Origin: Eledone cirrhosa
Lineage: Eukaryota
Direction of reading: 5' to 3'
Assembly (NCBI GenBank): GCA_964016885.1
Contig: OZ024741.1
Span: forward strand, 336,598,001 to 336,662,000
DNA length: 64,000 nt
Shown: piece by piece, positions 1 to 50,279 of the stretch
Numbering within the stretch: position 1 is the first letter of the stretch
Layout: each line of letters starts with the position of its first letter
Position numbers and translations under genes: made by a program
The notes under the pieces: generated by a model
Seen by the model: only the letters and a program-made list of their open reading frames with translations
What the model was told of the DNA's origin: nothing
The model's database searches: none

Positions 1-126
1 CACCCAGCACTCACTGTAAATGAGGTTGGTGTTAGGAAGGGCATCCAGCTGTAGAAATCAAGCCAGAATCAGTTCCCGTCCCACCCTTGCAAGCAGGGAA
101 AAGTGGACGTAAAATGATGATGATGA

Positions 127-128: not shown

Positions 129-194
<66 letters not shown>

Positions 195-200
195 GCACAC

Positions 201-238
<38 letters not shown>

Positions 239-9398: not shown

Positions 9399-9407
<9 letters not shown>

Positions 9408-9724
9408 GTGAGTTTTTTTTACAAATTGAAAATTAACCGAGGTGTCCTACATGAGTGAAAGTATAAAGAAAAAGAGATGAAATCGAAAATGCAACTGTGG
9501 TTTTTCTCACATAAGATGTGAGAAAAACCACAGACCCTCCATCTCAACTCTACTTTTGAAAAGCAGAAGAACTGCGAAACCGGTAAAGCAACCAAATAAA
9601 TATATATATTTTTTTTAAAAATAAGACTACAGTTGCATTTTCGATTTCATCTCTTTTTCTTTATACTTTCACTCGTGTAGGACACCTCGGTTATTTTTCA
9701 ATTTGTAAAAAAAACCTCACTTTC

Positions 9725-9728
<4 letters not shown>
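9399..9728. mobile_element. Foldback element with ~100-bp inverted arms in (TA)n, containing a variant HHR
   Basis: Arms 9399-9498 and 9629-9728 are near reverse complements. The internal motif is at 9551-9590. Confidence 0.8.
9551..9590 (+). ncRNA. Variant minimal hammerhead (U3-A8 core)
   Basis: tactt TTGAAAA GCAG aagaa CTGC GAAA CCGG TA aagca. Perfect stem II, palindromic ACCGGT, stem I with one mismatch. Confidence 0.55.
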
Positions 9729-9777
<49 letters not shown>

Positions 9778-9780
<3 letters not shown>

Positions 9781-10584
9781 GTAGATAAATCTACCAAGAG
9801 TTTACGGTAGTGTCCAATCCGTATGAAGAACTCAATGTATTCCGGATATCATGGAAAGAAGAGATGTAATGAAAATCCACTTTCGGTGAAAGATAAACAG
9901 TATACAGAGTCAAGATAAAATATTAAACAAATAATGAACAAACAATTTCTTATATTAAACAAAAAAAGTTCACTATTTAACGATCGTTTCTAGGGTATAT
10001 ATGTGTTATAATTGGTATGCATATTTAACAGATCTATGTACAAAATTATACAAAATTATACAAATTATCAAGATTAAATATACATACCTAACTCATATAT
10101 ACGCCGTCTTCAGAAATAATGAAGTATATTTATTGATAATAACAACAATTCAAAATATCAGTTCAAAATTGACCAATGAAAACACAAAGGGTTAAAAGCA
10201 GTTTGGTGTGTGTATATACATGTAAAAACCTTACACATATTTTACAATAATGTGTGTATAATTTGTATGTGCATACTAAAAAGATGGATGCAAACACAAA
10301 ATTTCAAGGTTAATATCTCTGTAAGCTTAATGCGCTGATAAGATACGCAATGATACTTATGGAGTCAAGCATATAAATATATTTTTTTCATACTCACACA
10401 TATCAGTATAATCACACATACATGTGCGTATATGCATAAATATACACATAACCACGAACATATAAACACACACACTCCCCCACTCACATTTATATATGTG
10501 GATATAAAATCATAAGCAAATAGAAATTAAGTCACTCACATAAAAACACTGGCACACACATTTCAAGATCAAGATACAGAAATT
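9778..10584 (-). repeat. 3' pseudo-LTR of PLE-1
   Basis: 807-bp direct repeat of 15856-16662. One mismatch noticed (9899 A vs 15977 G). Confidence 0.9.
9969..10123 (-). ncRNA. Type-I hammerhead ribozyme with long stem II (3' pLTR copy)
   Basis: Reverse complement of 20463-20617. Confidence 0.8.
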
Positions 10585-10709
10585 AGGTGGGAGGGGGGGG
10601 GGGGAGGGGTCAGTATTAGATTGTCAGACCAGACTGCCTAATATAAATGTATCTATAAATTAAGAAAAATAAAAAAATAAAAACAATAAAATATAAAAAT
10701 ATAATATAA

Positions 10710-10895
10710 TGTACATACACATACAGATATACATACACATACATACATGTACGCGCACATAGAGATATCTACACATACATACATACACACATACCTATAC
10801 AGTCATACACACACATACATTTACACGAATATATACATATACACATATAAAAAGATATAAATACACACACACTCACGCGCAACACATACACACAT

Positions 10896-10936
<41 letters not shown>

Positions 10937-11276
10937 TACGCACACACATAGACTCATATATATATATATACACATACACATACATATATATAAACATATA
11001 TATATCCACACACTCATACCACCATAAATACACATACAAACACCCACATGCATATATATATATATATATATATAACCACATACACACACGTACACATATA
11101 TATATATACATATATACACATACATATATATATATACACACACATAAAAAACAGACATGCACATATATATATATATATATATATTTCATTACTCTTATAT
11201 ATACACATAGTATATATACATACACAACCTCACTTATACACATATACACATAAGTTATATTACAATAATAATAAAG

Positions 11277-11318
<42 letters not shown>

Positions 11319-11440
11319 ATATATACACATATATATATATATACATACATACATACACATACATACATACACATAAATATATACATACATAAATACACAC
11401 ATACGAATAAAGACATATATTCACACATAGACACCCATAT

Positions 11441-11472
<32 letters not shown>

Positions 11473-11950
11473 CTATATATATATATATACACACATATAT
11501 ATATATATATATATATACACATACACACACACACACACACACAGACACACATACACACTCACATATATATATATATATATATATGTGTATGTGAGTGTGC
11601 GCAAATACACATATATATAGACACACACATACAAACACACACAAACACATACATATGCATACGTGCACACACCCACACATATATCACATAGATACGAAGA
11701 TAAACATATAAATAGAGAGACATACAAATATATACAGAACCCATATACACATACATACAAACACGCATATACATATACATACATATATACACATATATAT
11801 ATTCCTATATACAAGCATACACATACATACACATATATACATATACATACACATATACATACCACACATTCACATACACATACATATATAATACATATAT
11901 ATACATATATATACATACATATGTATGTACAATCATATATACACACTCAA
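10710..11950. repeat. Complex (TA/CA)n microsatellite array inside the PLE-1 3' UTR (mirror at ~18636-19876)
   Basis: Dinucleotide mosaic. Identical ORF-track translations appear on the opposite strand in the inverted copy. Confidence 0.9.
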
Positions 11951-13261
11951 TCTTACATTATATTTACATGCTCATATATGTATTTTTATATTTAGAAATA
12001 AATACCAAAACCTATATAGACACCCACCTACACATATATTCATACATATACGCTTACAAAAACAGATGATAATAGTATGGGGGAAAGGGGGGGTTTGGAG
12101 AAGGGGATCAAAGTAAATATATGTTTCAAGAAACATATAATATTTTCCGTATCTTAATTCAATGTATGTTCTTACATATTTTCAGTGCTAGGAAATACGA
12201 AATCTATGCATCTCAAAACAAAAAAGTAAACCATTAATCATATGTTAACTAAACCAAAGATAGTCAACATATTGATTTCCAAGGTGTAAATTAGTTAGGT
12301 TTATAATATTTGAAGCAGAATTATGAAGTCAAACAGTAGTAGATTATTAATTACAATATAACTAAATTAAAGTTAATAACGTTATGGTATCAATATTAGG
12401 AGATGAATTTAGTAATAGGGAAAAGAAACCCAAATAAAAATAAAATAAAGTATTACATCGGTAGTAGCATATAAATTATATGTTAACTAAATTAAAAATT
12501 ATATATTTATTTCAATAGTATACGTTAATTAGTATATGTTAATTAGGTATACAATACATAAAGCAGATATTGTATTTCATCAATAGCATAATATAATTAT
12601 ATGCAAATAAAAATCAAAATTAATACGCATACATATACATATACATACACATACACATACATATACATATACACTCATATATATATATATATACACATAT
12701 ATACACATATATACATATATACTCACATAAATATACATACAGATACACATACAACACACACATATATACATATACATATAGATATACATATCTTTTTCAA
12801 AAAATTGCACAGAATATATTAATTAGGTATATATCCAAAACACATCTCATTCTATGATTACATGACATTCTGCAATTCGTCTGTACAAGGATACTAATTT
12901 TAAGCAAATTAAAATTAAAGTTTTAGGTTGATTAAAACTAAAACCAAATAATAAATATATTTCCAAAATGTATATTAATTAGGTCTATAATACTAAAAAT
13001 TCTTTCTCCGTCATTGGATACATGATATTATTTTGTTATATTTTATCTGTAAAAGAATTATAATAAAAAAATTATAATAAAAGGTTAAAATAAATTAAAA
13101 TTAATCTATAAATTAAATTACTGAGTATATATTAGTAATATTTAAAGGTTTTTCAAAATTTATGATTACATAATATTTTCTCATCTGTAATAAAATATTA
13201 ATTAAATTAAATTTATAGGTTAACTAACATTTAAATTAAATTAAATTCTAGAATAATGTTA

Positions 13262-15703
13262 TTAATTAGGTTTATAATATTTAAATGTTTTTTTTAGTTT
13301 ATGATTACACGATATAATTAATTCCTGTCTTTTATTTAATAAGATATCCCTAGACTTCATTATTTCAAATAGTTCTTGGGAACATAATCTACATTCCTTT
13401 CTATTATTTTGATAAGGGGTGGCTCTTTTGAGCACACTCCAGGTCAAATCATATTTTATATTTTTATTTTTATAACTATTGATTTTTTCTGCTAGAGATG
13501 TTGTATTAGCCAGTGCGGCATTTTTAAAGCTATGTTTGTGGGTATTATACCTTGTCTTAAAATTGTTAGAGGTAGCTCCTATATATGAGCAAATAGAATC
13601 TTTAGTTTTAACATTACATTTATAGACTATGTTGTTAACAAGACAATTCCCTTTTAATGGGCAGTTTGTTTTGTTTCTACAGTTACATCCTTTCGTTAAT
13701 TCTGTATTTGAGGAGATATTATTGTTAATTTGATGTACTGGTGGTATACTTATGGTTTTCTTACATTTATATGCATTATATGCACTTATATTTTGTTTTA
13801 TGTTATTTGTTGTAGAGTATGAGAATTTAACTGTAGACCTATTTAAGATTTGATGGTATTTGTGGTTTGGCGGGAAGTTTTTCTCAAGGATATAAAAAAA
13901 TTTTTTAGCAATATTATCCTTAACTTGTAAATTAAAAGGAGCATTATACCAAGTAATTCGTCTATTACGGTTTCTATGTTGTTTATTATTTTTATTATTT
14001 TTATATGTTGTATCATGATTTTTACTAGGAGGATTAATGTTAATGATCTCACCACAACTATTTTTAGTTATATTTGTAGATTTAGGTGTTTTATCTTTTT
14101 TATTAGGAGTTTTATTATTAATATTTATTATAGTTGTATGATGAGTAGTTTTTTGAGGGTTACTATACTTTATATTAGAAGATTTAGTATTTTGGGGTAT
14201 ACTGTGGGTGGCATTTAGGTGTGTACTTTTCATTTGGTGTTTGTTGGTAATATTATGCTGTATGCTTTCAGTATTTTTAGTAGAAGGTATATACTCTAAT
14301 CTATTTTTGTGGCCACTTCTATCTAGAGCTTCATTATAAAAGGTCGCATTTTTATCAAATACATCTTGGTTAGAAGAAAGGTTAGAAATTCTAAGTGATA
14401 TATTATATGCAAGGTTTTTAAGGATAGATTTAGGGTGATTAGATTGTGAGTGTATGTAATGTAAGTTTTGGTTAGGTTTATGGTAAGGTTGGTATATACC
14501 CGTAGCTAAATCTAAAGTTATATCTAGGAAATTTACTACTTTACTTGTTTTTTCAAAAGTAATATTAAGATTATAATAGTCTTTAAGGAAAGTTCTAATA
14601 TGCTTTTTGTTTTTTTCGATTTCTGAAAGGCTAAGGTTGTTAGAAAGAAGAAGACAGTCATCACGATATAAACCACCTTTGAGGTGGGGAAAAGAGGCAT
14701 TTATGTTGAAAAGGAGAAAGAGGCCCACAAGATCAGTAATTTGGGCGGAATCGCTTGAACCCATAGTAATATCAAAAAGATTACTGTATGTGTTTCTGGT
14801 CCAGTACTCATTCTGAAATTCAATAAGTGTTTGTCTAGCATGTGTAATAATGTTAATGTCATCCGAAGTTAAATTAGATCTATTTTTAGCAAATATTAAT
14901 GCTTTGTTCAGGAGTATGGGTGATATAGAAGAATAGTAATTATCTATATCAAATTGTAGGAAAGAAGCAGAGGATTTACACCTAATATTTTTAAACCAAT
15001 TAATTACCTGGGAGGTGTTTTCCCAGAGTGGTAAAATAACGTATTTTCTTATTTGTGGGATGACTCTATCTAAAATTTTTTTGCTAATTATTCCAATATC
15101 TGATTTGGAGGGACATATAAGTCTAATAGAAGGATTAGAGTTAAAGTTAGATTTGTGATCTTTCAGGTTGAAGTGTGGTCTTTTCAATGCCAAAGGTTCA
15201 GTTCTATCTTCAATATTTAGTTTTTTTACTATGTTGTGTGTTTTGTTGTTGATGTTGGTGAGTGACACATTATTAGATTTTTTATAATTTTTTCTGAGTT
15301 CTTTAAATATGAACTCATTATAATGTTCAATATCCATATGATACAAGTTACCAGTTTTGTCCGAGTGGACATGGATTTTTTTAGACTTTTTTAGGTCCAA
15401 TAGGGTAGAATCAAGGTCCTTTTGAAAGACGGATTTGTACTTTTTAAATTTGAGGTGTTTAATTAAATTAAAAAGGTCTTTCTCGAAGTCTTCAAGTAAA
15501 AAGTTGTGTGGTGGATTCTTGTAAGTGTTGAAATCATACATATATTTCCGATCTGCCTGTTTAGATTTTCTATCGAAGTGGTAGGCTCTCCATCTAACCC
15601 TTCTGATAAAATTATTAGTTTTCTGAATCATAAGGAGTAAGAAGTCGTCCTTAGAAGGTATTGGTATGTTTTTTAAGGAGGTTCCTAAATATTGTTTTTC
15701 CAT
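13262..15703 (-). CDS. Intact Penelope-like (Naiad-like) reverse transcriptase + GIY-YIG endonuclease, 813 aa from first ATG
   Basis: SDKTGN, FLQFDIDNYYSSI, ITMGSSDSAQITD, GGLYRDDCL, FLDITL, PYHKP, WYNAPF, linker CNCRNKTNCPLKGNCL, IVYKC...YIGAT..FKTRY..HK.SF, CRLC..E. No stops. The ORF-track start at 15724 is a TTG. Confidence 0.93.
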   Translation of the reverse strand: MEKQYLGTSLKNIPIPSKDDFLLLMIQKTNNFIRRVRWRAYHFDRKSKQADRKYMYDFNTYKNPPHNFLLEDFEKDLFNLIKHLKFKKYKSVFQKDLDSTLLDLKKSKKIHVHSDKTGNLYHMDIEHYNEFIFKELRKNYKKSNNVSLTNINNKTHNIVKKLNIEDRTEPLALKRPHFNLKDHKSNFNSNPSIRLICPSKSDIGIISKKILDRVIPQIRKYVILPLWENTSQVINWFKNIRCKSSASFLQFDIDNYYSSISPILLNKALIFAKNRSNLTSDDINIITHARQTLIEFQNEYWTRNTYSNLFDITMGSSDSAQITDLVGLFLLFNINASFPHLKGGLYRDDCLLLSNNLSLSEIEKNKKHIRTFLKDYYNLNITFEKTSKVVNFLDITLDLATGIYQPYHKPNQNLHYIHSQSNHPKSILKNLAYNISLRISNLSSNQDVFDKNATFYNEALDRSGHKNRLEYIPSTKNTESIQHNITNKHQMKSTHLNATHSIPQNTKSSNIKYSNPQKTTHHTTIININNKTPNKKDKTPKSTNITKNSCGEIININPPSKNHDTTYKNNKNNKQHRNRNRRITWYNAPFNLQVKDNIAKKFFYILEKNFPPNHKYHQILNRSTVKFSYSTTNNIKQNISAYNAYKCKKTISIPPVHQINNNISSNTELTKGCNCRNKTNCPLKGNCLVNNIVYKCNVKTKDSICSYIGATSNNFKTRYNTHKHSFKNAALANTTSLAEKINSYKNKNIKYDLTWSVLKRATPYQNNRKECRLCSQELFEIMKSRDILLNKRQELIISCNHKLKKTFKYYKPN

Positions 15704-15855
15704 TGTGATATGGATGATGGACAATTGAAAGAGCTCAACTAAATGTATATGGGTTTACAAAATCATACATATATATATGTTTATACATAAATATAAAATT
15801 AATACACACATACAGTACAAAAATACGAATATTTCCGTGAAAATAGGAGCAAAAT

Positions 15856-16662
15856 TATGTAGATAAATCTACCAAGAGTTTACGGTAGTGTCCAATCCGT
15901 ATGAAGAACTCAATGTATTCCGGATATCATGGAAAGAAGAGATGTAATGAAAATCCACTTTCGGTGAAAGATAAACGGTATACAGAGTCAAGATAAAATA
16001 TTAAACAAATAATGAACAAACAATTTCTTATATTAAACAAAAAAAGTTCACTATTTAACGATCGTTTCTAGGGTATATATGTGTTATAATTGGTATGCAT
16101 ATTTAACAGATCTATGTACAAAATTATACAAAATTATACAAATTATCAAGATTAAATATACATACCTAACTCATATATACGCCGTCTTCAGAAATAATGA
16201 AGTATATTTATTGATAATAACAACAATTCAAAATATCAGTTCAAAATTGACCAATGAAAACACAAAGGGTTAAAAGCAGTTTGGTGTGTGTATATACATG
16301 TAAAAACCTTACACATATTTTACAATAATGTGTGTATAATTTGTATGTGCATACTAAAAAGATGGATGCAAACACAAAATTTCAAGGTTAATATCTCTGT
16401 AAGCTTAATGCGCTGATAAGATACGCAATGATACTTATGGAGTCAAGCATATAAATATATTTTTTTCATACTCACACATATCAGTATAATCACACATACA
16501 TGTGCGTATATGCATAAATATACACATAACCACGAACATATAAACACACACACTCCCCCACTCACATTTATATATGTGGATATAAAATCATAAGCAAATA
16601 GAAATTAAGTCACTCACATAAAAACACTGGCACACACATTTCAAGATCAAGATACAGAAATT
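15856..16662 (-). repeat. 5' pseudo-LTR of PLE-1
   Basis: Direct repeat of 9778-10584, upstream of the ORF. Confidence 0.9.
16047..16201 (-). ncRNA. Type-I hammerhead ribozyme (5' pLTR copy)
   Basis: Same motif as 9969-10123, shifted by 6078. Confidence 0.8.
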
Positions 16663-19113
16663 TTAAGGATAATATTGCTAAAAAATTTTTTTATATCCTT
16701 GAGAAAAACTTCCCGCCAAACCACAAATACCATCAAATCTTAAATAGGTCTACAGTTAAATTCTCATACTCTACAACAAATAACATAAAACAAAATATAA
16801 GTGCATATAATGCATATAAATGTAAGAAAACCATAAGTATACCACCAGTACATCAAATTAACAATAATATCTCCTCAAATACAGAATTAACGAAAGGATG
16901 TAACTGTAGAAACAAAACAAACTGCCCATTAAAAGGGAATTGTCTTGTTAACAACATAGTCTATAAATGTAATGTTAAAACTAAAGATTCTATTTGCTCA
17001 TATATAGGAGCTACCTCTAACAATTTTAAGACAAGGTATAATACCCACAAACATAGCTTTAAAAATGCCGCACTGGCTAATACAACATCTCTAGCAGAAA
17101 AAATCAATAGTTATAAAAATAAAAATATAAAATATGATTTGACCTGGAGTGTGCTCAAAAGAGCCACCCCTTATCAAAATAATAGAAAGGAATGTAGATT
17201 ATGTTCCCAAGAACTATTTGAAATAATGAAGTCTAGGGATATCTTATTAAATAAAAGACAGGAATTAATTATATCGTGTAATCATAAACTAAAAAAAACA
17301 TTTAAATATTATAAACCTAATTAATAACATTATTCTAGAATTTAATTTAATTTAAATGTTAGTTAACCTATAAATTTAATTTAATTAATATTTTATTACA
17401 GATGAGAAAATATTATGTAATCATAAATTTTGAAAAACCTTTAAATATTACTAATATATACTCAGTAATTTAATTTATAGATTAATTTTAATTTATTTTA
17501 ACCTTTTATTATAATTTTTTTATTATAATTCTTTTACAGATAAAATATAACAAAATAATATCATGTATCCAATGACGGAGAAAGAATTTTTAGTATTATA
17601 GACCTAATTAATATACATTTTGGAAATATATTTATTATTTGGTTTTAGTTTTAATCAACCTAAAACTTTAATTTTAATTTGCTTAAAATTAGTATCCTTG
17701 TACAGACGAATTGCAGAATGTCATGTAATCATAGAATGAGATGTGTTTTGGATATATACCTAATTAATATATTCTGTGCAATTTTTTGAAAAAGATATGT
17801 ATATCTATATGTATATGTATATATGTGTGTGTTGTATGTGTATCTGTATGTATATTTATGTGAGTATATATGTATATATGTGTATATATGTGTATATATA
17901 TATATATATGAGTGTATATGTATATGTATGTGTATGTGTATGTATATGTATATGTATGCGTATTAATTTTGATTTTTATTTGCATATAATTATATTATGC
18001 TATTGATGAAATACAATATCTGCTTTATGTATTGTATACCTAATTAACATATACTAATTAACGTATACTATTGAAATAAATATATAATTTTTAATTTAGT
18101 TAACATATAATTTATATGCTACTACCGATGTAATACTTTATTTTATTTTTATTTGGGTTTCTTTTCCCTATTACTAAATTCATCTCCTAATATTGATACC
18201 ATAACGTTATTAACTTTAATTTAGTTATATTGTAATTAATAATCTACTACTGTTTGACTTCATAATTCTGCTTCAAATATTATAAACCTAACTAATTTAC
18301 ACCTTGGAAATCAATATGTTGACTATCTTTGGTTTAGTTAACATATGATTAATGGTTTACTTTTTTGTTTTGAGATGCATAGATTTCGTATTTCCTAGCA
18401 CTGAAAATATGTAAGAACATACATTGAATTAAGATACGGAAAATATTATATGTTTCTTGAAACATATATTTACTTTGATCCCCTTCTCCAAACCCCCCCT
18501 TTCCCCCATACTATTATCATCTGTTTTTGTAAGCGTATATGTATGAATATATGTGTAGGTGGGTGTCTATATAGGTTTTGGTATTTATTTCTAAATATAA
18601 AAATACATATATGAGCATGTAAATATAATGTAAGATTGAGTGTGTATATATGATTGTACATACATATGTATGTATATATATGTATATATATGTATTATAT
18701 ATGTATGTGTATGTGAATGTGTGGTATGTATATGTGTATGTATATGTATATATGTGTATGTATGTGTATGCTTGTATATAGGAATATATATATGTGTATA
18801 TATGTATGTATATGTATATGCGTGTTTGTATGTATGTGTATATGGGTTCTGTATATATTTGTATGTCTCTCTATTTATATGTTTATCTTCGTATCTATGT
18901 GATATATGTGTGGGTGTGTGCACGTATGCATATGTATGTGTTTGTGTGTGTTTGTATGTGTGTGTCTATATATATGTGTATTTGCGCACACTCACATACA
19001 CATATATATATATATATATATATGTGAGTGTGTATGTGTGTCTGTGTGTGTGTGTGTGTGTGTATGTGTATATATATATATATATATATATGTGTGTATA
19101 TATATATATATAG

Positions 19114-19145
<32 letters not shown>

Positions 19146-19267
19146 ATATGGGTGTCTATGTGTGAATATATGTCTTTATTCGTATGTGTGTATTTATGTA
19201 TGTATATATTTATGTGTATGTATGTATGTGTATGTATGTATGTATATATATATATATGTGTATATAT

Positions 19268-19309
<42 letters not shown>

Positions 19310-19649
19310 CTTTATTATTATTGTAATATAACTTATGTGTATATGTGTATAAGTGAGGTTGTGTATGTATATATACTATGTGTATATATAAGAGTAATGA
19401 AATATATATATATATATATATATGTGCATGTCTGTTTTTTATGTGTGTGTATATATATATATGTATGTGTATATATGTATATATATATATGTGTACGTGT
19501 GTGTATGTGGTTATATATATATATATATATATATGCATGTGGGTGTTTGTATGTGTATTTATGGTGGTATGAGTGTGTGGATATATATATGTTTATATAT
19601 ATGTATGTGTATGTGTATATATATATATATGAGTCTATGTGTGTGCGTA

Positions 19650-19690
<41 letters not shown>

Positions 19691-20671
19691 ATGTGTGTAT
19701 GTGTTGCGCGTGAGTGTGTGTGTATTTATATCTTTTTATATGTGTATATGTATATATTCGTGTAAATGTATGTGTGTGTATGACTGTATAGGTATGTGTG
19801 TATGTATGTATGTGTAGATATCTCTATGTGCGCGTACATGTATGTATGTGTATGTATATCTGTATGTGTATGTACATTATATTATATTTTTATATTTTAT
19901 TGTTTTTATTTTTTTATTTTTCTTAATTTATAGATACATTTATATTAGGCAGTCTGGTCTGACAATCTAATACTGACCCCTCCCCCCCCCCCCTCCCACC
20001 TAATTTCTGTATCTTGATCTTGAAATGTGTGTGCCAGTGTTTTTATGTGAGTGACTTAATTTCTATTTGCTTATGATTTTATATCCACATATATAAATGT
20101 GAGTGGGGGAGTGTGTGTGTTTATATGTTCGTGGTTATGTGTATATTTATGCATATACGCACATGTATGTGTGATTATACTGATATGTGTGAGTATGAAA
20201 AAAATATATTTATATGCTTGACTCCATAAGTATCATTGCGTATCTTATCAGCGCATTAAGCTTACAGAGATATTAACCTTGAAATTTTGTGTTTGCATCC
20301 ATCTTTTTAGTATGCACATACAAATTATACACACATTATTGTAAAATATGTGTAAGGTTTTTACATGTATATACACACACCAAACTGCTTTTAACCCTTT
20401 GTGTTTTCATTGGTCAATTTTGAACTGATATTTTGAATTGTTGTTATTATCAATAAATATACTTCATTATTTCTGAAGACGGCGTATATATGAGTTAGGT
20501 ATGTATATTTAATCTTGATAATTTGTATAATTTTGTATAATTTTGTACATAGATCTGTTAAATATGCATACCAATTATAACACATATATACCCTAGAAAC
20601 GATCGTTAAATAGTGAACTTTTTTTGTTTAATATAAGAAATTGTTTGTTCATTATTTGTTTAATATTTTAT
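16663..20671 (+). repeat. Inverted 5'-truncated PLE-1 copy (GIY-YIG coding end 16663-17324, 3' UTR, partial pLTR)
   Basis: Reverse complement of 9915-13923 with a constant coordinate sum. Confidence 0.92.
20463..20617 (+). ncRNA. Type-I hammerhead ribozyme with 116-nt stem II
   Basis: TTCATTATTT CTGAAGA [GTATATATG...GGTATGTATATTTAA ... TTAAATATGCATACC...CATATATAC] GAAA CGATCG TT AAATAGTGAA. 10-bp stem I, palindromic ACGATCGT, predicted cleavage after 20607. Confidence 0.82.
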
Positions 20672-20674
20672 ATT

Positions 20675-20704
<30 letters not shown>

Positions 20705-20725
<21 letters not shown>

Positions 20726-20925
20726 TATTAAAAATGTTAACAAAAAAAAAATATTCACATAATCAAAATATATATTTAATTATATATATATATATATTTC
20801 AAAGGTACTGTGTTGTTTTTTCAGTACGTCCTCATCAGACAAAATATATGATTTGACATACCACTACGGTCTTGATTATTCAATTCGAGTATTGGCAGTG
20901 ATTTATTTTATAAAATCTCAATATA
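20705..20925 (-). mobile_element. Inverted twin of the 7421-7620 PLE-terminus fragment
   Basis: TTTCAAAGGTACTGTGTTGTTTTTTCAGTACGTCCTCATCAGACAAAATATATG is the reverse complement of 7495-7548. Confidence 0.7.
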
Positions 20926-20945
20926 TATATGTACATATATATATA

Positions 20946-27035: not shown

Positions 27036-27069
<34 letters not shown>

Positions 27070-27191
27070 GGAGGTGAGTTTTATTGTAGCACAATAAAGC
27101 AATGCAAATATCGGATAAGTAGCACTCTGCAGTTTGTAGGACTGGAGTATGAATAAATATAAGATCAAAAGATGGTTAAAAGAGTTCCAAG

Positions 27192-27262
27192 TATTTTATT
27201 ATGCGTATTTCAAAAATAAATATCATCATGGGATGATATCTGCGTTCTCATCAGATAAAATA
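27192..27262 (-). ncRNA. Type-I hammerhead ribozyme at PLE-2 3' end
   Basis: TATTTTAT CTGATGA gaac GCAGATATCATC ccat GATGATATTTAT tttt GAAA TACGCA TA ATAAAATA. Perfect 8-bp stem I. Confidence 0.8.
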
Positions 27263-28432
27263 GGGAGACATGATATGAAGCTTAAAAAACACTTGTGAGC
27301 AGTGAAGTTTTAAATCAACATAGGAAAAATAAACTAAGATGGATAAATGAGATTGAGGAAAATATAGGGAGGGGGGTAGGAAAAGGTAAAGAAGAGGAAG
27401 AAAGAAAAATAAAGTTGGTGGGGGACGAGTATAAGAAAGAAGAATGATAGAGGAGGAGAAATGAGTGATAGAGATAGAGAAATAACCTTTACAACTGAGA
27501 AAACATTGTCTCACAGAGAGAAATTAAAAAACCGTTGGAAGATAATAGATAATTTAAAAGATTTTGAAATTAAAAGTTAATGAGGTTTATGCATGAAGAA
27601 AAAAGAATTAAGAATAGTATTAAATTAAGGTTTGTATATTCAAGGGTCTAATAATATGTGCGAAAAAGAATTTATTAATATGTATCTTTAAAATAAAAAT
27701 ATTAATGATATTAAGGATATAATGTGAAAGAAGGAGAAGAATAAATGAATTATGAACTTAGGAATTAGTTAGGGTTTAAGTTTGTTTTTGTGCATTGTAA
27801 TATGTAAACGTAAATAGTAGGTTTAAAAGTAGCACGGAAGGAGAGAAGAAAAAAGAAAGTTTAAAGAAGAAAAATATCTAACGTCAAAAAGTATACATGT
27901 TTACGAAAATTTTCTAAAAGTAATATTATAATATATTAAAAAAGGAATTAGTTAGGGTTTAAGTTTGATTTTATGTATTGTAATATGTAAAAGTAAAAGT
28001 AAATAGTAGGTTTAAAACGAGCACGGAAGGAGAGAAGAAAAAGAAAAATTTAAGGAAGAAAAAATATCTAACGTTAAAAAGTATATATGTTTACGAAAAT
28101 CTTCTAATGGTAATATTATAATATATTTTTTAAAATATAGTTTTAATGGCCAATAATATGAGGAAAAATGGAAAATGCTGTAGTGAGTAATAATATGAAT
28201 TGAGAAGTAATTGGAATGAAAAAGTATAAATTAGAGATTAGAAATTAAAAAAGAAAAAAGGAAGAAAGGAAAATGATAAAGAAGAAAGATAGGGGATCAT
28301 AACAACATAGAATGAGTAAATTGTATTATATAATATATAATACTGAAATAAGGTAGAAAGATGGGTATATTTGTAAAAGATATAAAAGCCTTTGAGAAAG
28401 AGAAGATTTTAAACTAATTAGGTATTGAGATA

Positions 28433-30790
28433 TTAGCTGTATACTTTATGGAATGTTCTATGGGATTTATGCAAGCAGTGCGAAAATAAATCCGTGCGTC
28501 TATTTATTATAGAATTGAAATTAGATATAATGGTAAATTTCTCGGCTAGGCAGAGATTACATGTTCTGGATAGGGAAGAATTCAGGTAAGGAAAGGCGGT
28601 GCAAACCGTCCTCCAAGAGATGTCATAGTTAATATTTTTGTCTTTTAAGGACCATATGAGTTCCGAGAGTGCCGTGTTAGTTCTTTTAAGCTGGTATTTA
28701 AAAGACGATTTGTGATTATAAAATCTAGCTTTAAAGGAAGTAGAAGTGGAACCGAAATAGGTAAAAGAATTAGTATCAGTTATAACCTTACATTCATACA
28801 CTAAGTTTTTATCAAGACATTTGTTATTAAGAGGACATTTAGTTCTAACAGGGCAATTACAATTACGATTAGAGAAATTAACAGAGTTATTAACAAGTGA
28901 CCTAGTATTATTTATAGAAGGAATTGGATTGGAGAAGTTATTTACGATAGGAACTATAGTTTCCTGATTTAGATTGGTATTGTGAACATTCAACGAAGTT
29001 ACGTTTGACGTCGTATTTAAATTTACAGAATCTAGCCTAGAGTTAACAATGACGTCGGGTTTACTGTTGTAATTATTATGACGCTCAGTGTTGGAAGGAT
29101 GTAATTTATTATTTAATATTTTATTGTTGTGTTTAGAGATAATGTTAGAGATGTTGGAAGTGGTGGAATAAGAAAATGTGATTGTATGTTTGTTAAAGGT
29201 TTTACTATAGATATGTGAGGGAGGGAAGCATTTATCTAAAGCCCTTAAGAATAGTTCAGGAATATTATTATTAATAGTAAGAGAAAAAGGAGCATTATAC
29301 CAAATTATATTTTTGTATCTAGGTCTTTTATTTAAGTTATTGGAATGTTCATAATTAACTATTTTACTATAGGACCTTCGATGATTGGTTTCCTTACTGT
29401 ATTTAATTTTATCAGGATAACCGGCTTTGTAAAGCGCATTATTATAGTAATTGGCATTAGCGTCGAAGATATCTTTATTAGAGGATAGATTTGAGATTCT
29501 TTTTTCAATATTACTGACTATAGCATTTTTAACGTTAGTGGGATGGTTAGATTTAAAATTAACATAATTTAGATTCTCATTGTTTTTATGGTAAGGGTAA
29601 TATAGGCCAGTATCAAGATTAAGGGATATATCCAAGAAGTTAGCTAGTTTGACGTTGTTATCAAATTTAATTTTAAGGTTATGGTGCTTAAATAGATCAC
29701 GTATATTGTTCTTAATAATATTAAGGTTTACTAAGTTACAGTTTAAGACAGTAAAAAGGCCATCGTCGCGATAAATTCCACCGCGAAGTTGATCAATTTT
29801 CCGATTTAAAGAATTCAAAATAAAGATACCAATCAAATCACTCAATTGCGATGAATCGGAAGCACCCATTGTGATATCAAAATTGTTGGAAGTATCAGCC
29901 CTAGTCCAATATTCATTGTTGAATTCCAATTTAGTTTTACTTGCGGTGAGAATGATGTAAAGTTCATCTGTGGTAATGTCAGAATATTTAAATGCGAAAG
30001 ATAGAGCGTTGTTGAGGAGTGAAGGCGAAATAGAAGAATAGTAGCTGGCAATATCAAATTGAATACATTTTTGTTTGTTTTCTTATTCAGATTATTGAAC
30101 CAGCCAATTACTTCAGATGTACCAATCCATAAATTTAAGTTAGAAATAGAGCAATTAGAACGAACCTGTGGGATAATTCTATTCAAGATGGCTTTATTAA
30201 CAACCCCCAGATCTGATTTAGAGGGGGCGATTAGTCTAACAGGCAGTTCCGTTCGAAAGTTACTTTTATGATCCTTGAGATTTATCCTCGGAGTTCTTGG
30301 GAAGAATGGTTCGGTCTTTTTCTCAATGCCAAGTTTAGACATAATCTAAGAAGCTTCCAAGTTTATAGATTCCAAATTGTCATGGTTAGTTTTACGATAA
30401 TTTTTCCTTAGTTCCTTAAGGATAAGGTTATTATACTGATCTTTAGATACGCCATATAAATTATTAGTTTTGTCGGAGTGGACTAAGACATTTTTAGAGG
30501 AATTAAGGTTTAAAATCGTATTCCTGAGATTTATAAGGTGCTGTCCTCTATAAGGGTTTCTCTTGAATTTAAGACTTCTTATAATTGTTTCTACTTTTAG
30601 CACAAGGCCAGCAATTACCCAGTTTATTACTGGTACTTTATTTTATCGACCCCGTAAGGATGAAAGGCAATAAGACTTCTTATAATATTAGTTAATTCTT
30701 CCTCAAACTGCACTAGATTTTTGTTGGAAGGAGAATTTCTTCTAGAGTTGAATAAATGATCAAAATAGTTATGTTCCTTACCGGAAATCT
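28433..30790 (-). pseudogene. PLE-2 RT + GIY-YIG pseudogene
   Basis: HSDKTNNLY, IQFDIASYYSSI, GGIYRDDGL, FLDISL, WYNAPF, CNCPVRTKCPL, LVYEC..YFGST..FKARF..HK.SF, CNLCLAE. TAG at 30346-30348, frameshift in an A-run near 30070, SINE insertion. Confidence 0.88.
30586..30670 (-). mobile_element. Truncated SINE family A inserted in the PLE-2 ORF with 16-bp TSD
   Basis: TAAGACTTCTTATAAT at 30570-30585 and 30671-30686. Confidence 0.88.
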
Positions 30791-31553
30791 TCCCTATCCC
30801 GAACATGTAATCTCTGCCTAGCCGAGAAATTTACCATTATATCTAATTTCAATTCTATAATAAATAGACGCATGGATTAATTTTCGCTCTGCTTGCATAA
30901 ATCCCATAGAACATTCCATATAGTATACAGCTAATATCTCAATACCTAATTAGTTTAAAATCTTTTTCTCAAAGGCTTTTATATCTTTTACAAATATACC
31001 CATCTTTCTACCTTATTTCAGTATTATATATTATATAATACAATTTACTCATTCTATGTCGTTATGATCCCCTATCTTTCTCCTTTATCATTTTCCTTTC
31101 TTCCTTTTTTCTTTTTTAATTTCTAATCTCCAATTTATACTTTTTCTTCCCAATTACTTCTCAATTCATATTATTACTCACTACAGCATTTTCCATTTTT
31201 CCTCATATTATTGGCCATTAAAACTATATTTTTAAAAATATATTATAATATTACCATTAGAAGATTTTCGTAAATATATACTTTTTAACGTTAGATATAT
31301 TTTCTTCCTTAAATTTTTCTTTTTCTTCTCTCCTTCCGTGCTCGTTTTAAACCTACTATTTACTTTTACTTTTACATATTACAATACATAAAATCAAACT
31401 TAAACCCTACCTAATTCCTTTTTAAATATATTATAATATTACCATTAGAAAATTTTCGTAAACATATATACTTTTTGACGTTAGATTTTTTCACATGTTG
31501 ATTTAAAACTTCAATGTTCACACGTGTTTTTTAAGCTTCATATCACGTCTCCC

Positions 31554-31624
31554 TATTTTCTCCGATGAGAACGCAGATATCATCCCATGATGATATTTGT
31601 TTTTGAAATACGCATAATAAAATA
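31554..31624 (+). ncRNA. Mutated hammerhead in the inverted PLE-2 copy
   Basis: TATTTTCT CCGATGA ... GAAA TACGCA TA ATAAAATA, with a U4C core change. Confidence 0.55.
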
Positions 31625-31650
31625 CTTGGAACTCTTTTAACCATCTTTTG

Positions 31651-31727
<77 letters not shown>

Positions 31728-43562: not shown

Positions 43563-43644
43563 GTTATTCCGGGTTGAATCGGAGGTAACCACAGTAAGTA
43601 AGGTACTCAATACATAGCAGAGTATAAAAGTTTTAATATAGATG

Positions 43645-43695
43645 AGATTCTACAGGACTAGAACTGTTTCATTCATTAGAAATCATCAGGAATCT
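43645..43695 (-). ncRNA. Type-I hammerhead ribozyme at PLE-3 3' end
   Basis: Reverse complement of 50176-50226. Confidence 0.75.
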
Positions 43696-44272
43696 GGGTA
43701 TCAAAAAATAAAAATGGTATTTATAGGTCTCTACAAGTGGTAGGAGAGGGTGGGGAGTGGGATGGGTGTAGGTCATTGGTTGATAGAAAAGGGAATTCAT
43801 TAAAAGATAATTCTACAAAGCTATAGTTTATTTTTATTTATTTATGTTTTTAGAGTAACAAGGGCAGACAGAATTCTATAAACAGGTTCCGGATGGCATA
43901 CCATTCCTTGTCATTAAGTTTCTCTTAAGCAAACAGATGTCTATAAGATCAGTGGGGGGTCAGTCATGGTCGATAGAATTAAAGAAAAGGGAGATTCTTT
44001 AAAAGCTAAAATCATTAAGGTTCTACTAAGTGACAAAGGTCTAGAGAATTCTGTAGACAGATTCAAAATACTGAGTGCATATCTTACAATTATCTTCGAA
44101 CTTCTCTTAAACTAATCAACTATATGCCAAAAATCAACAGACACATTCACAAAAAAACATACTCACTCACACACTCACGCGCAACCATAAACACACACAC
44201 AAACACATGTACACACATAAAAACACACACACATATATATAAATATATTCATATACATACATATACATACAC

Positions 44273-44335
<63 letters not shown>

Positions 44336-44540
44336 TATATATACATACACACACACATACATATATATACACTCACACACACATATATACACATATAAAT
44401 ACACTCACACATATACATACAAACACAAATATACATGTGTATACAAATACACACAAATACATATAGATATATATACATATATATACATATATATACACAT
44501 ATACACATATATATATATATATATATATACATACATACAA

Positions 44541-44583
<43 letters not shown>

Positions 44584-44720
44584 CACATATATATATACAC
44601 ATACACACACACATATATATATATATAAAAAAACACATACACACATATATACATATACACACACATACACACAAACACACACACACATATATATACACAT
44701 ATACATATATATATATATTC

Positions 44721-44797
<77 letters not shown>

Positions 44798-44844
44798 AAC
44801 AAATATATACACATACAAACACACACACACACATACATACACAC

Positions 44845-44879
<35 letters not shown>

Positions 44880-44942
44880 TATACACATATATAAGGAAAA
44901 AGCACCATACTTACATGCATAAATATATATATATATATATAT

Positions 44943-45003
<61 letters not shown>

Positions 45004-45097
45004 TACACCATTCATACATATATTCATATATATATACACATACACACATATATACACATATACACATATATACACACACACATATATACACATATAC

Positions 45098-45136
<39 letters not shown>

Positions 45137-45321
45137 TATACATACACATATACACACACACATACACATACATACATATATACACAAATACATACACACA
45201 TATACACACACACATATATATATATATATATAAACATATATACACATACATACATATATATATATATATATACATAAATATATATATATATATAAAAATA
45301 TACACAGATATACATACATAT

Positions 45322-45366
<45 letters not shown>

Positions 45367-45424
45367 AACATACATACAAACATACATATACACATCTATA
45401 TAAATAAATATATATATATATACG

Positions 45425-45479
<55 letters not shown>

Positions 45480-45517
45480 ACACACATACACACACACACA
45501 TATACACATACACACAC

Positions 45518-45552
<35 letters not shown>

Positions 45553-45593
45553 CATACACATACACACACATATATATACACGCACACACATAT

Positions 45594-45640
<47 letters not shown>

Positions 45641-45654
45641 TACACATGCATATG

Positions 45655-45691
<37 letters not shown>

Positions 45692-45888
45692 ATATATATA
45701 CAAATATACACACACATACACAGACTTATACATAAGTATACACATATATATATACACATACATATAACGCATATATACACACATATATACATATATATAC
45801 ACACGCATACACACATACACACACACACACAAATATATATACACACACTCTCTCTCACGCACATATATATATATATACACATATATAC

Positions 45889-46004
<116 letters not shown>

Positions 46005-46066
46005 TATATACATATACATACATATACACACACATATATATATATATACGCACCTGCCCACACAAC

Positions 46067-46108
<42 letters not shown>

Positions 46109-46603
46109 TACACACATACACACACACACATATATACATATATATATATATACATATATATATATACATATACATATATATATACATATACATATATACA
46201 TAAACATACATATATACATACACATACACATACATACATACCCATACACATATATACACATATATATATATATACATATATATATACACATATATATACA
46301 CATATATACATACACATACATACATAAATATACACACATAAAACACATATACACACAAACATATATATATATATATACACATACACATACATATACACAC
46401 ATACAAACAAATATATACACATACAAATAAATAGGTACTCAATAAATATACGCATATACGCAGGCACATAAAGACACCTCTACAGGCAAAAAAATGTAGA
46501 TACGGAAGCGGTACTCACATAACCATAGCGGCCGTATTTCAGGTTGAGGAGGGTGGGGGTAGGGTGGGGAGGAGGTATAGGGGCCAATAGGGGGAGGTCG
46601 TTT

Positions 46604-47878
46604 TTAGCCATCGGGCTTTAACACTGGCTTAAAGTGTTTGAAAGTTGCAAAGTTCTTGTGCATGCAGTTCGGGCAGTGTTCAGAGAGTTTGTTCAGTAGC
46701 GGGCCCTTGGCGAATAAAATTTCGTAGCTCTCTGAAATACAAAGGTCGCAGCCCTTGTGTCCTCCGTTGTAAGAGCGCGCTTTCTGGAGTATTTTCCATT
46801 TAAGCGTGAAGGGGGTGGAATTCCTTTTGAGGTCCCAAACGTAGGAGGCGAGTGTTGTCTGATTTGATTTATCCGGTCTCCTGAAGGAGTGGGTATGAGC
46901 ATACCAACGGGTCTTAAAGTTGTTGGAGGTCATGCCGATGTAAGTTTTTTTGCAATCCTCGGTGCCTGAGATGACATCGCATTTGTATACGATGTCATTT
47001 GTGAGGCATTTGTTTTCAAGTGGGCATGCTTCCTTATTTAGGCAATTACATAGAGCCCCAGTCCGGGGATTGGTTTCGGAGGTGGTTGGCTTATTTAATT
47101 TAGAATTGTGGTTGGCTATATTCCTAGCTAGGTTAGGTGTGGTGGAGTTAGACAGTCTTATAGTGTTCTTATTAAAGATGGTGTAGTACCTATGTTGTAT
47201 GGGGAAGTGTAATTTCAGTAAAGTGAAGAAAATCCTAGCTATCGGAGTAGATACCTCTCTATTGAAGGGAGGGTTGTACCAGCTAATCTGCCTATGTCTA
47301 TTCCTCCTCTGCAATCTTGCGGTGGTTTCTAGGTAAGTTATCTTATCTTTAAATCCGCTACGGGCGAGGGCGTCATTGTAGTAGGAGGCAGATGCATTAA
47401 AAATATCTTTGTTGGCGGAGAGGCCAGATATTCTAATAGAGACGCTTTTTACTAGGTTATCAATGATGTTTTGGGGGTGGTTTGAATTAACATTAATATA
47501 TTTAAGGGACTCGTTAGGTTTGTGGTACGGGTAATAGAGGGAAGTATCTAGGTCGAGAGTGACATCTAAGAAGTTGGCCCTAGTCAAATTAGAATCTATA
47601 GTTATACTAAATCCTAGATTAGAGAAGAAAGAGCTTAAGTTTTTCCGAAACCCATAGGTGGTCCTGGGGTTAACCTTATGCAGGGCGAAGAGGCCGTCGT
47701 CTCGGTATAAACCTCCCGTTAGGCCGGTAAAGAGGTTCTTCAGGTTATGTAGGATGTACAGGCCCACAAGGTCGCTAATTTCAGCCGAGTCACTCGGCCC
47801 CATGCTAAAGTCAAATGGGGTCTGAGATTTCTTGTTGATCCAGTAAGATCCATCGTGGTATAGAAAGGTCTTACGAGC
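46604..47878 (-). CDS. PLE-3 RT C-terminal half + GIY-YIG (open frame, 5'-truncated)
   Basis: The frame extends upstream of the called ATG ([13 protein letters not shown]...[15 protein letters not shown]). [55 protein letters not shown]. Confidence 0.85.
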
Positions 47879-47925
47879 GTATATATATATATATATATAT
47901 GTATATGTATATATACATATATATG

Positions 47926-48046
<121 letters not shown>

Positions 48047-48087
48047 GGATATATATATATATATATGTGTGTGTGTATATGTGTGTA

Positions 48088-48127
<40 letters not shown>

Positions 48128-48181
48128 GTTGTGTGGGCAGGTGCGTATATATATATGTGTGTGTGTATATGTATGTATATG

Positions 48182-48277
<96 letters not shown>

Positions 48278-48521
48278 GTATATATGTGTATACTTATGTA
48301 TAGGTCTGTGTATGTGTGTGTATATTTGTATATATATGGATATATATATATATATATATATTTATACATATGCATGTGTATGTGTGTGTGTGTGTGTATA
48401 TATATATATGTGTATATGTGTGTGCGTGTATATATATGTGTGTGTATGTGTATGTATATATATATATATATATGTATGTATGTGTGTGTGTATGTGTATA
48501 TGTGTGTGTGTGTATGTGTGT

Positions 48522-48568
<47 letters not shown>

Positions 48569-48626
48569 CGTATATATATATATATTTATTTATATATATG
48601 TGTATATGTATGTTTGTATGTATGTT

Positions 48627-48675
<49 letters not shown>

Positions 48676-48752
48676 ATATGTAGGTATATCTGTGTATATT
48701 TTTATATATATATATATATTTATGTATATATATATATATGTATGTATGTGTA

Positions 48753-48795
<43 letters not shown>

Positions 48796-48810
48796 ATATG
48801 TGTATGTATA

Positions 48811-48865
<55 letters not shown>

Positions 48866-48958
48866 ATATGTGTATATATGTGTGTGTATATATATGTGTA
48901 TATGTGTATATATGTGTGTATGTGTATATATATATATGAATATATGTATGACTGGTGT

Positions 48959-49056
<98 letters not shown>

Positions 49057-49097
49057 ATGTATGTGTGTGTGTGTGTTTGTATGTGTATATATTTGTT

Positions 49098-49174
<77 letters not shown>

Positions 49175-49279
49175 GAATATATATATATATGTATATGTGT
49201 ATATATATATGTGTGTGTGTGTTTGTGTGTATGTGTGTGTATATGTATATATGTGTGTGTATGTGTATATATATATGTG

Positions 49280-49366
<87 letters not shown>

Positions 49367-49545
49367 ATATGTGTATATATATGTATATATCAGTGTATAT
49401 ATATGTATATATATCTATATGTATTTGTGTGTATTTGTATACACATGTATATTTGTGTTTGTATGTATGTGTGTGAGTGTATTTATATGTGTATATATGT
49501 GTGTGTGAGTGTATATATATGTATGTGTGTGTGTATGTATATATA

Positions 49546-49600
<55 letters not shown>

Positions 49601-50175
49601 GTGTATGTATATGTATGTATATGAACATATTTATATATATGTGTGTGTGTTTTTATGTGTGTATATGTGTTTGTGTGTGTGTTTATGGTTGCGCGTGAGT
49701 GTGAGTGAGTATGTTTTTTTGTGAATGTGTCTGTTGATTTTTGGCATATAGTTGATTAGTTTAAGAGAAGTTCGAAGATAATTGTAAGATATGCACTCAG
49801 TATTTTGAATCTGTCTACAGAATTCTCTAGACCTTTGTCACTTAGTAGAACCTTAATGATTTTAGCTTTTAAAGAATCTCCCTTTTCTTTAAATCTATCG
49901 ACCATGACTGACCCCCCACTGATCTTATAGAAATCTGTTTGCTTAAGAGAAACTTAATGACAAGGAATGGTATGCCATCCGGAACCTGTTTATAGAATTC
50001 TGTCTGCCCTTGTTACTCTAAAAACATAAATAAATAAAAATAAACTATAGCTTTGTAGAATTATCTTTTAATGAATTCCCTTTTCTATCAACCAATGACC
50101 TACACCCATCCCACTCCCCACCCTCTCCTACCACTTGTAGAGACCTATAAATACCATTTTTATTTTTTGATACCC

Positions 50176-50226
50176 AGATTCCTGATGATTTCTAATGAAT
50201 GAAACAGTTCTAGTCCTGTAGAATCT
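50176..50226 (+). ncRNA. Type-I hammerhead ribozyme
   Basis: AGATTC CTGATGA t TTC taat GAA t GAAA CAG ttctagtc CTG TA GAATCT; GUA triplet. Confidence 0.78.
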
Positions 50227-50238
50227 CATCTATATTAA

Positions 50239-50279
<41 letters not shown>

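Follow-up and report, generated by a model that had tools for sequence, protein, structure and literature searches.

The 3' ends of Penelope-like elements (PLEs) in Eledone cirrhosa fall at two family-fixed positions downstream of a predicted hammerhead ribozyme, and the head-to-head doublets formed by these elements nearly always carry one end of each kind. Twin target-primed reverse transcription would probably account for this pattern, with two family-fixed sites, one per DNA end, used likely on one RNA molecule. Positions with a sign are counted from the predicted cleavage site, and the window is the whole stretch of 64,000 nucleotides that was analysed.

Three head-to-head elements in the window

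As judged from their sequences, PLE-1, PLE-2 and PLE-3 are three unrelated Penelope-like elements, each inserted as a head-to-head doublet in (TA)n (Table 1). Their 3' ends are unequal and run past the ribozyme (+201/+64, ~+134/+37-44 and +88/+22, respectively), and (TA)n adjoins all six, as a sequence-only reading of this DNA had described. At both PLE-1 ends, the overlap with the target is the 3-nt TAT. The inverted arm of PLE-1 matches 9915-13923 at 4009 of 4009 positions, and self-comparison found 1 mismatch in the 807-bp direct repeat. The PLE-2 arms are ~94-97% identical to each other, while those of PLE-3 show 2 differences over 560 non-repeat bases. Cleavage in PLE-2 is predicted after 27200, with the long end at ~27066; its short end lies at ~+37 in the window copy, +44 being the family mode.

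Table 1. Coordinates of the features of the three elements in the window
Feature	Position	Strand	Remarks
(TA)n flank, PLE-1 long end	9727..9777		
PLE-1 main arm	9778..16662	-	807-bp pLTR and one 6078-bp unit; 3' end at +201
PLE-1 downstream pLTR copy	9778..10584	-	terminates at long site +201
PLE-1 predicted type I hammerhead	9969..10123	-	motif scan
PLE-1 long 3' region with internal TA/CA microsatellites	10585..13261	-	
PLE-1 intact ORF, 813 aa	13262..15703	-	ATG at +354
PLE-1 upstream pLTR copy (-605..+201)	15856..16662	-	806/807 identical to 9778-10584
Further predicted PLE-1 hammerhead copy	16047-16201	-	motif scan
PLE-1 inverted arm	16663..20671	+	start inside ORF (equivalent of 13923); end at short site +64
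Further predicted PLE-1 hammerhead copy	20463-20617	+	motif scan
(TA)n flank, PLE-1 short end	20672..20725		
PLE-2 main arm, 5'-truncated, ORF in >1 frame	27066..30800	-	long end +134
PLE-2 inverted arm	30801..31657	+	from equivalent of 28566, without ~27330-27868; short end ~+37
PLE-3 main arm, 5'-truncated inside RT	43563..47879	-	predicted cleavage after 43651; long end +88
PLE-3 inverted arm	47880..50242	+	start in internal microsatellite; predicted cleavage after 50220; short end +22

By motif reading, the PLE-1 ORF has the single-ORF organization of an EN+ PLE, with reverse transcriptase motifs (FDIDNYY and YRDD), a CxCx5C linker, a C-terminal GIY-YIG-like endonuclease domain, RWR and DKT. 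The C-terminal VYKC..YIG region aligns across all three families, and the best identity among the relatives recovered was 46%. A Pfam search of four PLE frames gave no match at 1e-3. The direct repeat of PLE-1 corresponds to the pLTR, or partial tandem, of EN+ PLEs, and 303 internal continuation matches were counted genome-wide. A type I hammerhead is predicted in the pLTR, the motif scan having located both the core motifs and stem I in each family. In PLE-1, CUGAAGA is found at 10113 and GAAA at 9990, with predicted cleavage after 9979, a 10-bp stem I, a stem II region of 116 nt and a short, palindromic stem III. In an Rfam scan of the window, the 150 matches listed out of 296 included no hammerhead and were microsatellite-driven miRNA models. 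For family 3 alone, 17,787 ribozyme matches were counted.

The accessible text of PMC8557442 and PMC3846280 describes EN+ PLEs as carrying a partial tandem, an inverted 5'-truncated copy and a one-sided tail of 30-40 bp. The window elements resemble them in the pLTR, the 5'-truncated inverted copy placed head to head at the 5' end, the unequal ends with a one-sided tail, the microsatellite targets and the palindromic junctions, but their tails measure 137, ~90 and 66-73 nt in families 1, 2 and 3. As in the Hydra clade outlined in PMC8557442, there is a C-terminal EN, a CxCx5C linker with CxxC and CxH in the EN (all three proteins), a predicted hammerhead and insertion in (TA)n; the RW(K/R) and DKT motifs occur with R replacing K, as RWR and DKT, in PLE-1 and one family-3 locus. 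That clade tends to be <3 kb, whereas the PLE-1 unit is 6078 bp owing to its microsatellite-filled 3' region. Assigned to a clade by motifs, the window elements are Penelope-like with Hydra-clade features. Non-LTR retrozymes, presented in the available text of PMC4209133 and bioRxiv 10.64898/2026.07.22.740005 as non-autonomous hammerhead-bearing PLE derivatives, were considered and rejected as an identity: they are non-coding units in head-to-tail arrays, each with a hammerhead, whereas ORFs are present in the window elements and the stubs have a head-to-head arrangement.

Fixed end sites and the pairing of long with short

In family 1, all 107 terminal ends fell at +59..64 or +197..203 (64 position-ordered clusters, an unselected sample that was retrieved with an exact 25-mer and is biased towards the young subfamily). 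Not one of the 107 lay at the predicted cleavage site, which supports the earlier proposal that the template is continuous across the ribozyme site. TA-abutting ends behaved similarly in family 2 (59/68 at +44..47 or +132..134) and in family 3 (57/63 at +15..22 or +86..88), the short site of the latter being split into two sub-sites, +15 and +22. No copy running beyond the long end was found among the family-2 loci examined, and RNA folds at the start sites of families 1 and 3 revealed no clear common structure. Exact end-plus-TA patterns matched 2082 and 4330 times genome-wide, long ends outnumbering short ones 2:1. This excess is largely an effect of the pattern, as, of 18 long ends for which the pattern gave no partner, 10 proved to have a variant short arm, 7 were single arms and 1 was out of range.

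Every one of the 43 family-1 doublets joined one long to one short end (p=2e-13). The same was true of 33/33 adjacent head-to-head pairs over 99.6 Mb of C1, a set that overlaps the 43 doublets, of 17/17 further loci, of 21/22 doublets in family 2 and of 23/24 in family 3. Exceptions include L282, a family-1 doublet with two short ends, and L152 in family 2, with ends at +41/+69. With one end of either kind per doublet, neither arm selects its start site freely. Read from these loci, the one-each pairing is nearly strict and goes beyond the tail that the available text of PMC8557442 and PMC3846280 calls "optional" or "often" one-sided; no paper stating the rule was found in the literature, although older subscription Penelope papers may state it. 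Doublets are the form of all three window elements, as first described, but not a universal one, since 46/64 family-1 clusters were doublets and 18/64 single-armed.

The sequence-only reading had the two ends of a break priming independently at variable positions through TA microhomology. Short TA overlaps at every end and the family-3 sub-sites +15 and +22 are what this would produce. However, family 1 offers 43 ATA/TAT sites between +1 and +355, of which only two are used, by 107/107 ends and in the one-each manner of 43/43 doublets. The ends are family-fixed, and the counts refute priming at variable positions, a scarcely credible reading.

Arms, junctions and 5' stops

Opposite arms of a doublet differed at 20 of 28,074 sites, compared with ~324 expected from other loci, and private variants were common to both. 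Such identity could also arise by gene conversion, through polishing of the assembly or from two RNAs of a single donor locus. An RNA-editing signature, as a marker of a single molecule, was sought in the shared private changes (n=36), which included A>G 9, T>C 4, G>A 8 and C>T 4.

The short-end arm reached further toward 5' in 23/43 doublets, the long-end arm in 8/43, and both equally far in 12/43; some of the short arm's 23-to-8 advantage is inherent in its starting 137 nt ahead. In 8/43 doublets, the long-end arm starts at +49..+164 and lacks upstream sequence present in the short-end arm. These figures bear on the origin of the tail, which the accessible text of PMC3846280 credits to self-priming and that of PMC8557442 to resolution by the EN. 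Under these ideas, one cDNA would fold back or self-prime and copy itself, an endonuclease trimming one end to leave the tail. Self-priming would readily give near-identical arms and the near-perfect palindromic junctions seen where arm starts are <=5 nt apart (12/43), and it may cover a subset. A self-copy must, however, be nested, and the short-end arm has sequence that its partner is missing in those 23/43 doublets, the arms barely overlap in 8/43, and several palindromic junctions lack a loop and show just a 2-nt overlap. The non-nested arms contradict self-priming as a general rule, which we consider improbable, and support the earlier claim that both break ends prime separately.

Microhomology is seen at doublet junctions, as are templated insertions that are specific to a locus and reach 48 nt. 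In the window, the junctions 16662/16663 and 30800/30801 were placed as the earlier reading had them, while 47879/47880 is a change from ORF to microsatellite for which the main-arm equivalent, ~46336, is approximate. An assembly fold-back could generate the 100% identity of the PLE-1 arms over 4009 bp, and junction 16662/16663 was unseen in four public runs, but these differ at many sites and give short-piece coverage, so they neither support nor refute it. Against an artefact stand the same fixed end difference in three unrelated families, the locus-specific insertions, the divergence of the PLE-2 arms and the publication of this layout in other animals. We regard a fold-back as extremely improbable.

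Of the 17 doublets in which an arm halts at -141, none has an arm that goes beyond -144 (both arms at the stop in 10, the short only in 7, the long only in 0). Among the other doublets, 5' ends lay <=5 nt apart in 4/27 (shuffle mean 0.22, p=1e-5). An asymmetric dimer could prime both arms with each half holding its own RNA, usually from the same donor locus. Such a dimer, of the kind predicted for PAc (in the portion of PMC11167929 available), would yield the fixed ends, one-each pairing and overlapping arms without strand displacement, and a single donor would give the arm identity and shared -141 stops. It offers no reason for the coincidence of arbitrary 5' ends in 4/27 doublets, nor for why 0/17 pairs combine a -141 arm with a longer one. 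Two RNAs are unlikely in our judgment, if a more serious contender than self-priming.

In family 1, stops at -133..-144 were found in 29/82 terminal passages versus 0/25 internal ones (p=2e-4). Internal copies extended past -605 in 23/30 cases, where a constant fall-off rate predicts ~79%, and tandem units differed at 6 of 14,192 sites; copying for more than one round, suggested earlier as the source of the pLTR, is plausible. Two RNA classes apparently served as template: the first ends sharply on its 5' side at -141, and the second was copied past unit length. The test of two classes is clear in family 1 only, as internal copies in family 3 have mixed starts, of which five fall close to the stop, at -35..-50. 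An extra G, as would mark a cap, preceded -141 in 23/100 copies, not significantly above an assumed 16% (p=0.07), and -141 is for this reason unproven as an RNA start site.

A proposed twin-priming model and its place among known elements

We favour, as the probable explanation, twin target-primed reverse transcription from two family-fixed sites, one per DNA end, likely on one RNA molecule; its steps as a whole we infer from genomic copies. The element protein would cut (TA)n on both strands. Each of the resulting DNA ends would prime at its own fixed internal RNA site, with TA pairing over 1-3 (up to 5) nt. An asymmetric dimer may assign the upstream (short) site to one of its active sites and the downstream (long) site to the other, with the trailing enzyme displacing the leading cDNA or halting early. 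End-joining repair would then link the two cDNA 3' ends head to head, and a single arm would result when only one DNA end succeeds. With less confidence, we suggest that linear, uncleaved RNA starting just upstream of or within stem I (-141, family 1) gives the abundant stub doublets, and that RNA without a 5' end in reach gives long arms, pLTRs and tandem arrays. The simplest form of such an RNA would be a unit-length circle released by cleavage at two ribozymes. Read-through of a tandem array could stand in for the circle.

In twin priming by L1, both DNA ends prime on one RNA to give an inversion, the second primer using variable internal sites and the two copies covering non-overlapping parts. 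Here, in contrast, neither site varies and overlap between the arms is usual.

The closest parallel is PAc, the Poseidon element of Anolis, which in the available text of PMC11167929 cuts and extends both strands and uses two internal starts on uncleaved RNA. PAc shares with the present elements two RT starts downstream of the hammerhead, AT-rich targets and a tail equal to the distance between the sites (PMC11167929). Its starts lie inside the ORF, whereas here they precede the start codon, an ATG at +354 in family 1 and at +137 in family 3. The main text of PMC11167929 gives no strand difference in start site and does not address inverted doublets. This lack of a strand difference for PAc in vitro counts against the twin-priming model. 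A circular template, formed by ribozyme cleavage and ligation and copied for more than a unit, is put forward as a proposal in the accessible parts of PMC4209133 and bioRxiv 10.64898/2026.07.22.740005; genomic copies back it here indirectly. Already in print are the inverted copy, the tail on one side, the starting of RT at internal sites of uncleaved RNA and the idea of a circle; the genome copies would add the one-each rule, tails of 66-137 nt, often non-nested arms sharing a template and two apparent RNA classes.

An obligately asymmetric form of twin reverse transcription, with the hammerhead as its switch, is a more tentative possibility. Transcripts with one ribozyme would stay linear and yield thousands of self-propagating palindromic stubs, while those with two would circularise and yield pLTRs and arrays. 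If true, the tail, inverted copy, pLTR and MITE-like hairpins would all share one mechanism. The counts yield sharp predictions (a site for each end, one RNA or two, an RNA start at -141, a 6078-nt circle), and PLE-1, being young and having its ORF open and its sites mapped, is suited to the published in vitro assay. The origin of PLE tandem and inverted structures is posed as an open question in the accessible text of PMC8557442 and only partly answered in that of PMC11167929. Under asymmetric twin priming, many hairpin "MITE-like" repeats in such genomes would be retro-insertions.

Penelope-like elements of the window and neighboring inserts

The window holds three mutually unrelated Penelope-like elements (PLE-1, PLE-2 and PLE-3; protein identity 44-45%). 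A motif scan predicted a type I hammerhead in each of them, the cleavage sites falling after 9979, 27200 and 43651. Relative to these sites, in element sense, the outer 3' ends lie at +201/+64 in PLE-1, +134/about +37 in PLE-2 and +88/+22 in PLE-3, and (TA)n adjoins 6/6 of them. Mapping of the repeat, ORF, hammerheads and ends bore out the coordinates that a sequence-only reading had assigned to the three insertions. The long ends of the corresponding genome-wide families 1-3 each fall within or beside a TACAT motif, at an offset that differs in family 3.

The PLE ORFs carry RT motifs, a CxCx5C linker, RWR and DKT motifs and, at the C terminus, a GIY-YIG-like region that contains CxxC and CxH; a Pfam search of these ORFs gave no match. 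These predicted motifs agree with the Hydra clade as described in PMC8557442, where clade members are reported to insert in (TA)n. An inverted 5'-truncated copy and a one-sided tail of 30-40 bp are both published PLE features (PMC8557442, PMC3846280).

PLE-1 arms and other inserts in the window
Feature	Position	Strand	Remarks
PLE-1 main arm	16662->9778	-	807-bp direct repeat; intact 813-aa ORF
PLE-1 inverted arm	16663-20671	+	identical to 9915-13923
Short hairpin inserts, arms head to head, flanked by TA runs	50278-50705; 36890-37338; 43236-43516		arms unequal, length difference roughly 70-95 nt; first has a clear predicted hammerhead, cleavage after 50583
Palindromic inserts in TA runs	26246-26935; 1508-1790; 32170-32408; 9404-9724		second has a hammerhead motif, predicted cleavage after 1750
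Single-arm hammerhead-like element between TA runs, two copies	20726-20912; about 7420-7630		93% identical; one copy adjoins PLE-1 short end
Family-3 derivative, 104 bp	6949-7052		ribozyme motif; variant long end present at several other loci
Non-LTR retroelement, many copies	52049-54442; 7643-9383; 20921-22645; others		RT (Pfam RVT_1) and PHD-like finger; several copies terminate in (GAT)n

PLE-1 is flanked by two of the non-LTR copies, tail to tail. The three hairpin inserts look like stubs (short doublets, or head-to-head pairs of arms) of further PLE families. Family 3 has 17,787 exact ribozyme matches genome-wide versus 99 continuing toward the ORF, and many of the first 100 matches are doublets of ~200 bp, which suggests self-propagating stubs.

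Position and pairing of the 3' ends

A 25-mer at the family-1 ribozyme matches the 3.0-Gb genome exactly at 1131 places. Taken in order of position, the first 100 matches fell into 64 clusters, and every cluster sequence was examined. The tabulation of 3' ends against the hammerhead site that the sequence-only reading had proposed was run on this sample. All 107 readable terminal ends lay at +59..64 (short end) or +197..203 (long end) and 0/107 at the cleavage site. The sequence-only reading was thus right on an uncleaved template continuous across the ribozyme, but its variable priming positions were wrong, as the ends occupy two fixed places. With 43 ATA/TAT sites available between +1 and +355, microhomology alone therefore does not select them.

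Head-to-head doublets made up 46 of the 64 clusters, and 18 were single-arm (9 long, 9 short). Leaving out three doublets with one unread end, 43/43 joined one short with one long end. Neighboring end pairs found by end-specific patterns on C1 up to 99.65 Mb were long plus short in 33/33 cases (loci partly overlapping the 43 doublets), and further doublets followed the same rule in families 1 (17/17), 2 (21/22) and 3 (23/24). The family-3 exception, L230, has the long-end sequence after an internal deletion. Other exceptions are L282, inspected because a match listing flagged it (short+short), and L152 (+41/+69).

Probable two-ended priming and the source of the arms

A self-copy of cDNA has to be nested inside the first arm. 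In 8/43 doublets, the long-end arm starts at +49..+164 and the upstream sequence is present in the short-end arm; the furthest 5' reach belonged to the short-end arm in 23, to the long-end arm in 8 and to both equally in 12. Doublet junctions show overlaps of 0-5 nt, and also templated insertions as long as 48 nt, which would fit repair joining two separate ends. Together, these observations support the two-ended priming proposed from the sequence and make it very unlikely that the arms arise from assembly fold-back. The window junction 16662/16663 was not seen in four public read runs, which differ from the window sequence and cover it in short pieces.

Across 28,074 non-repeat sites compared between opposite arms, 20 differ, with ~324 expected from other loci, although a single donor locus or gene conversion could also produce such identity. 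None of the 17 doublets touching a stop at -141 has any arm beyond -144, and in 4/27 others the 5' ends lie <=5 nt apart at arbitrary places (shuffle p=1e-5). Separate RNAs account less easily for the common limit and the coinciding ends; symmetric trimming during repair may also have played a part. Of 36 shared private changes examined for RNA-editing marks, 9 were A>G, 4 T>C, 8 G>A and 4 C>T.

Possible template classes

In family 1, 29/82 arms reaching the region have their stop at -133..-144; the usual position is -141, which is the A of a TCATT motif inside hammerhead stem I; comparable stops occur at -122 in family 2 and -43/-44 in family 3. In the upstream pLTR (the partial tandem repeat) of ORF-bearing arms, 0/25 passages stop there (p=2e-4) and 23/30 internal copies pass -605, where a constant fall-off rate of 0.29 per kb predicts 79% (some matches share an array). 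This disfavors an RT pause; -141 would therefore be where one RNA class has its 5' end, and long arms would be copied from RNA that has no end there. A non-template base precedes -141 at 675 sites genome-wide, some of which may be substitutions, and G occurs there in 23/100 in a family-1 cap-G test (not significant, a point against reading -141 as an RNA start). Two independent arms, at window 16662 and at L065, start at -605/-606, a possible minor RT stop immediately downstream of a poly-C tract. A few arms (L146, L152 (family 2), L316 (family 3)) start at -3..+2, compatible with the 5' end of ribozyme-cleaved RNA and also with 4-nt microhomology.

The circular template suggested by the sequence-only reading, and proposed earlier for PLEs in PMC4209133, is plausible. 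In family 1, tandem units show 6 differences in 14,192 sites and hold private variants in common. The long-arm template would most simply be a circle of unit length. Against this, start positions of family-3 internal copies are mixed, which also counts against two classes, and read-through of tandem arrays is an alternative source of long templates. The short palindromic stem III type is said to require a second ribozyme for cleavage (PMC4209133); the predicted family-1 hammerhead has such a stem, and family-1 RNAs with one ribozyme would remain intact.

In vitro, PAc starts reverse transcription at two internal sites on uncleaved RNA, and both DNA strands are cut and extended (PMC11167929). 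The window insertions are real and belong to a kind of element already known. Beyond the literature searched, the copies add long tails, a near-strict pairing of one short with one long end, and evidence that the arms share a template and that two RNA classes exist.
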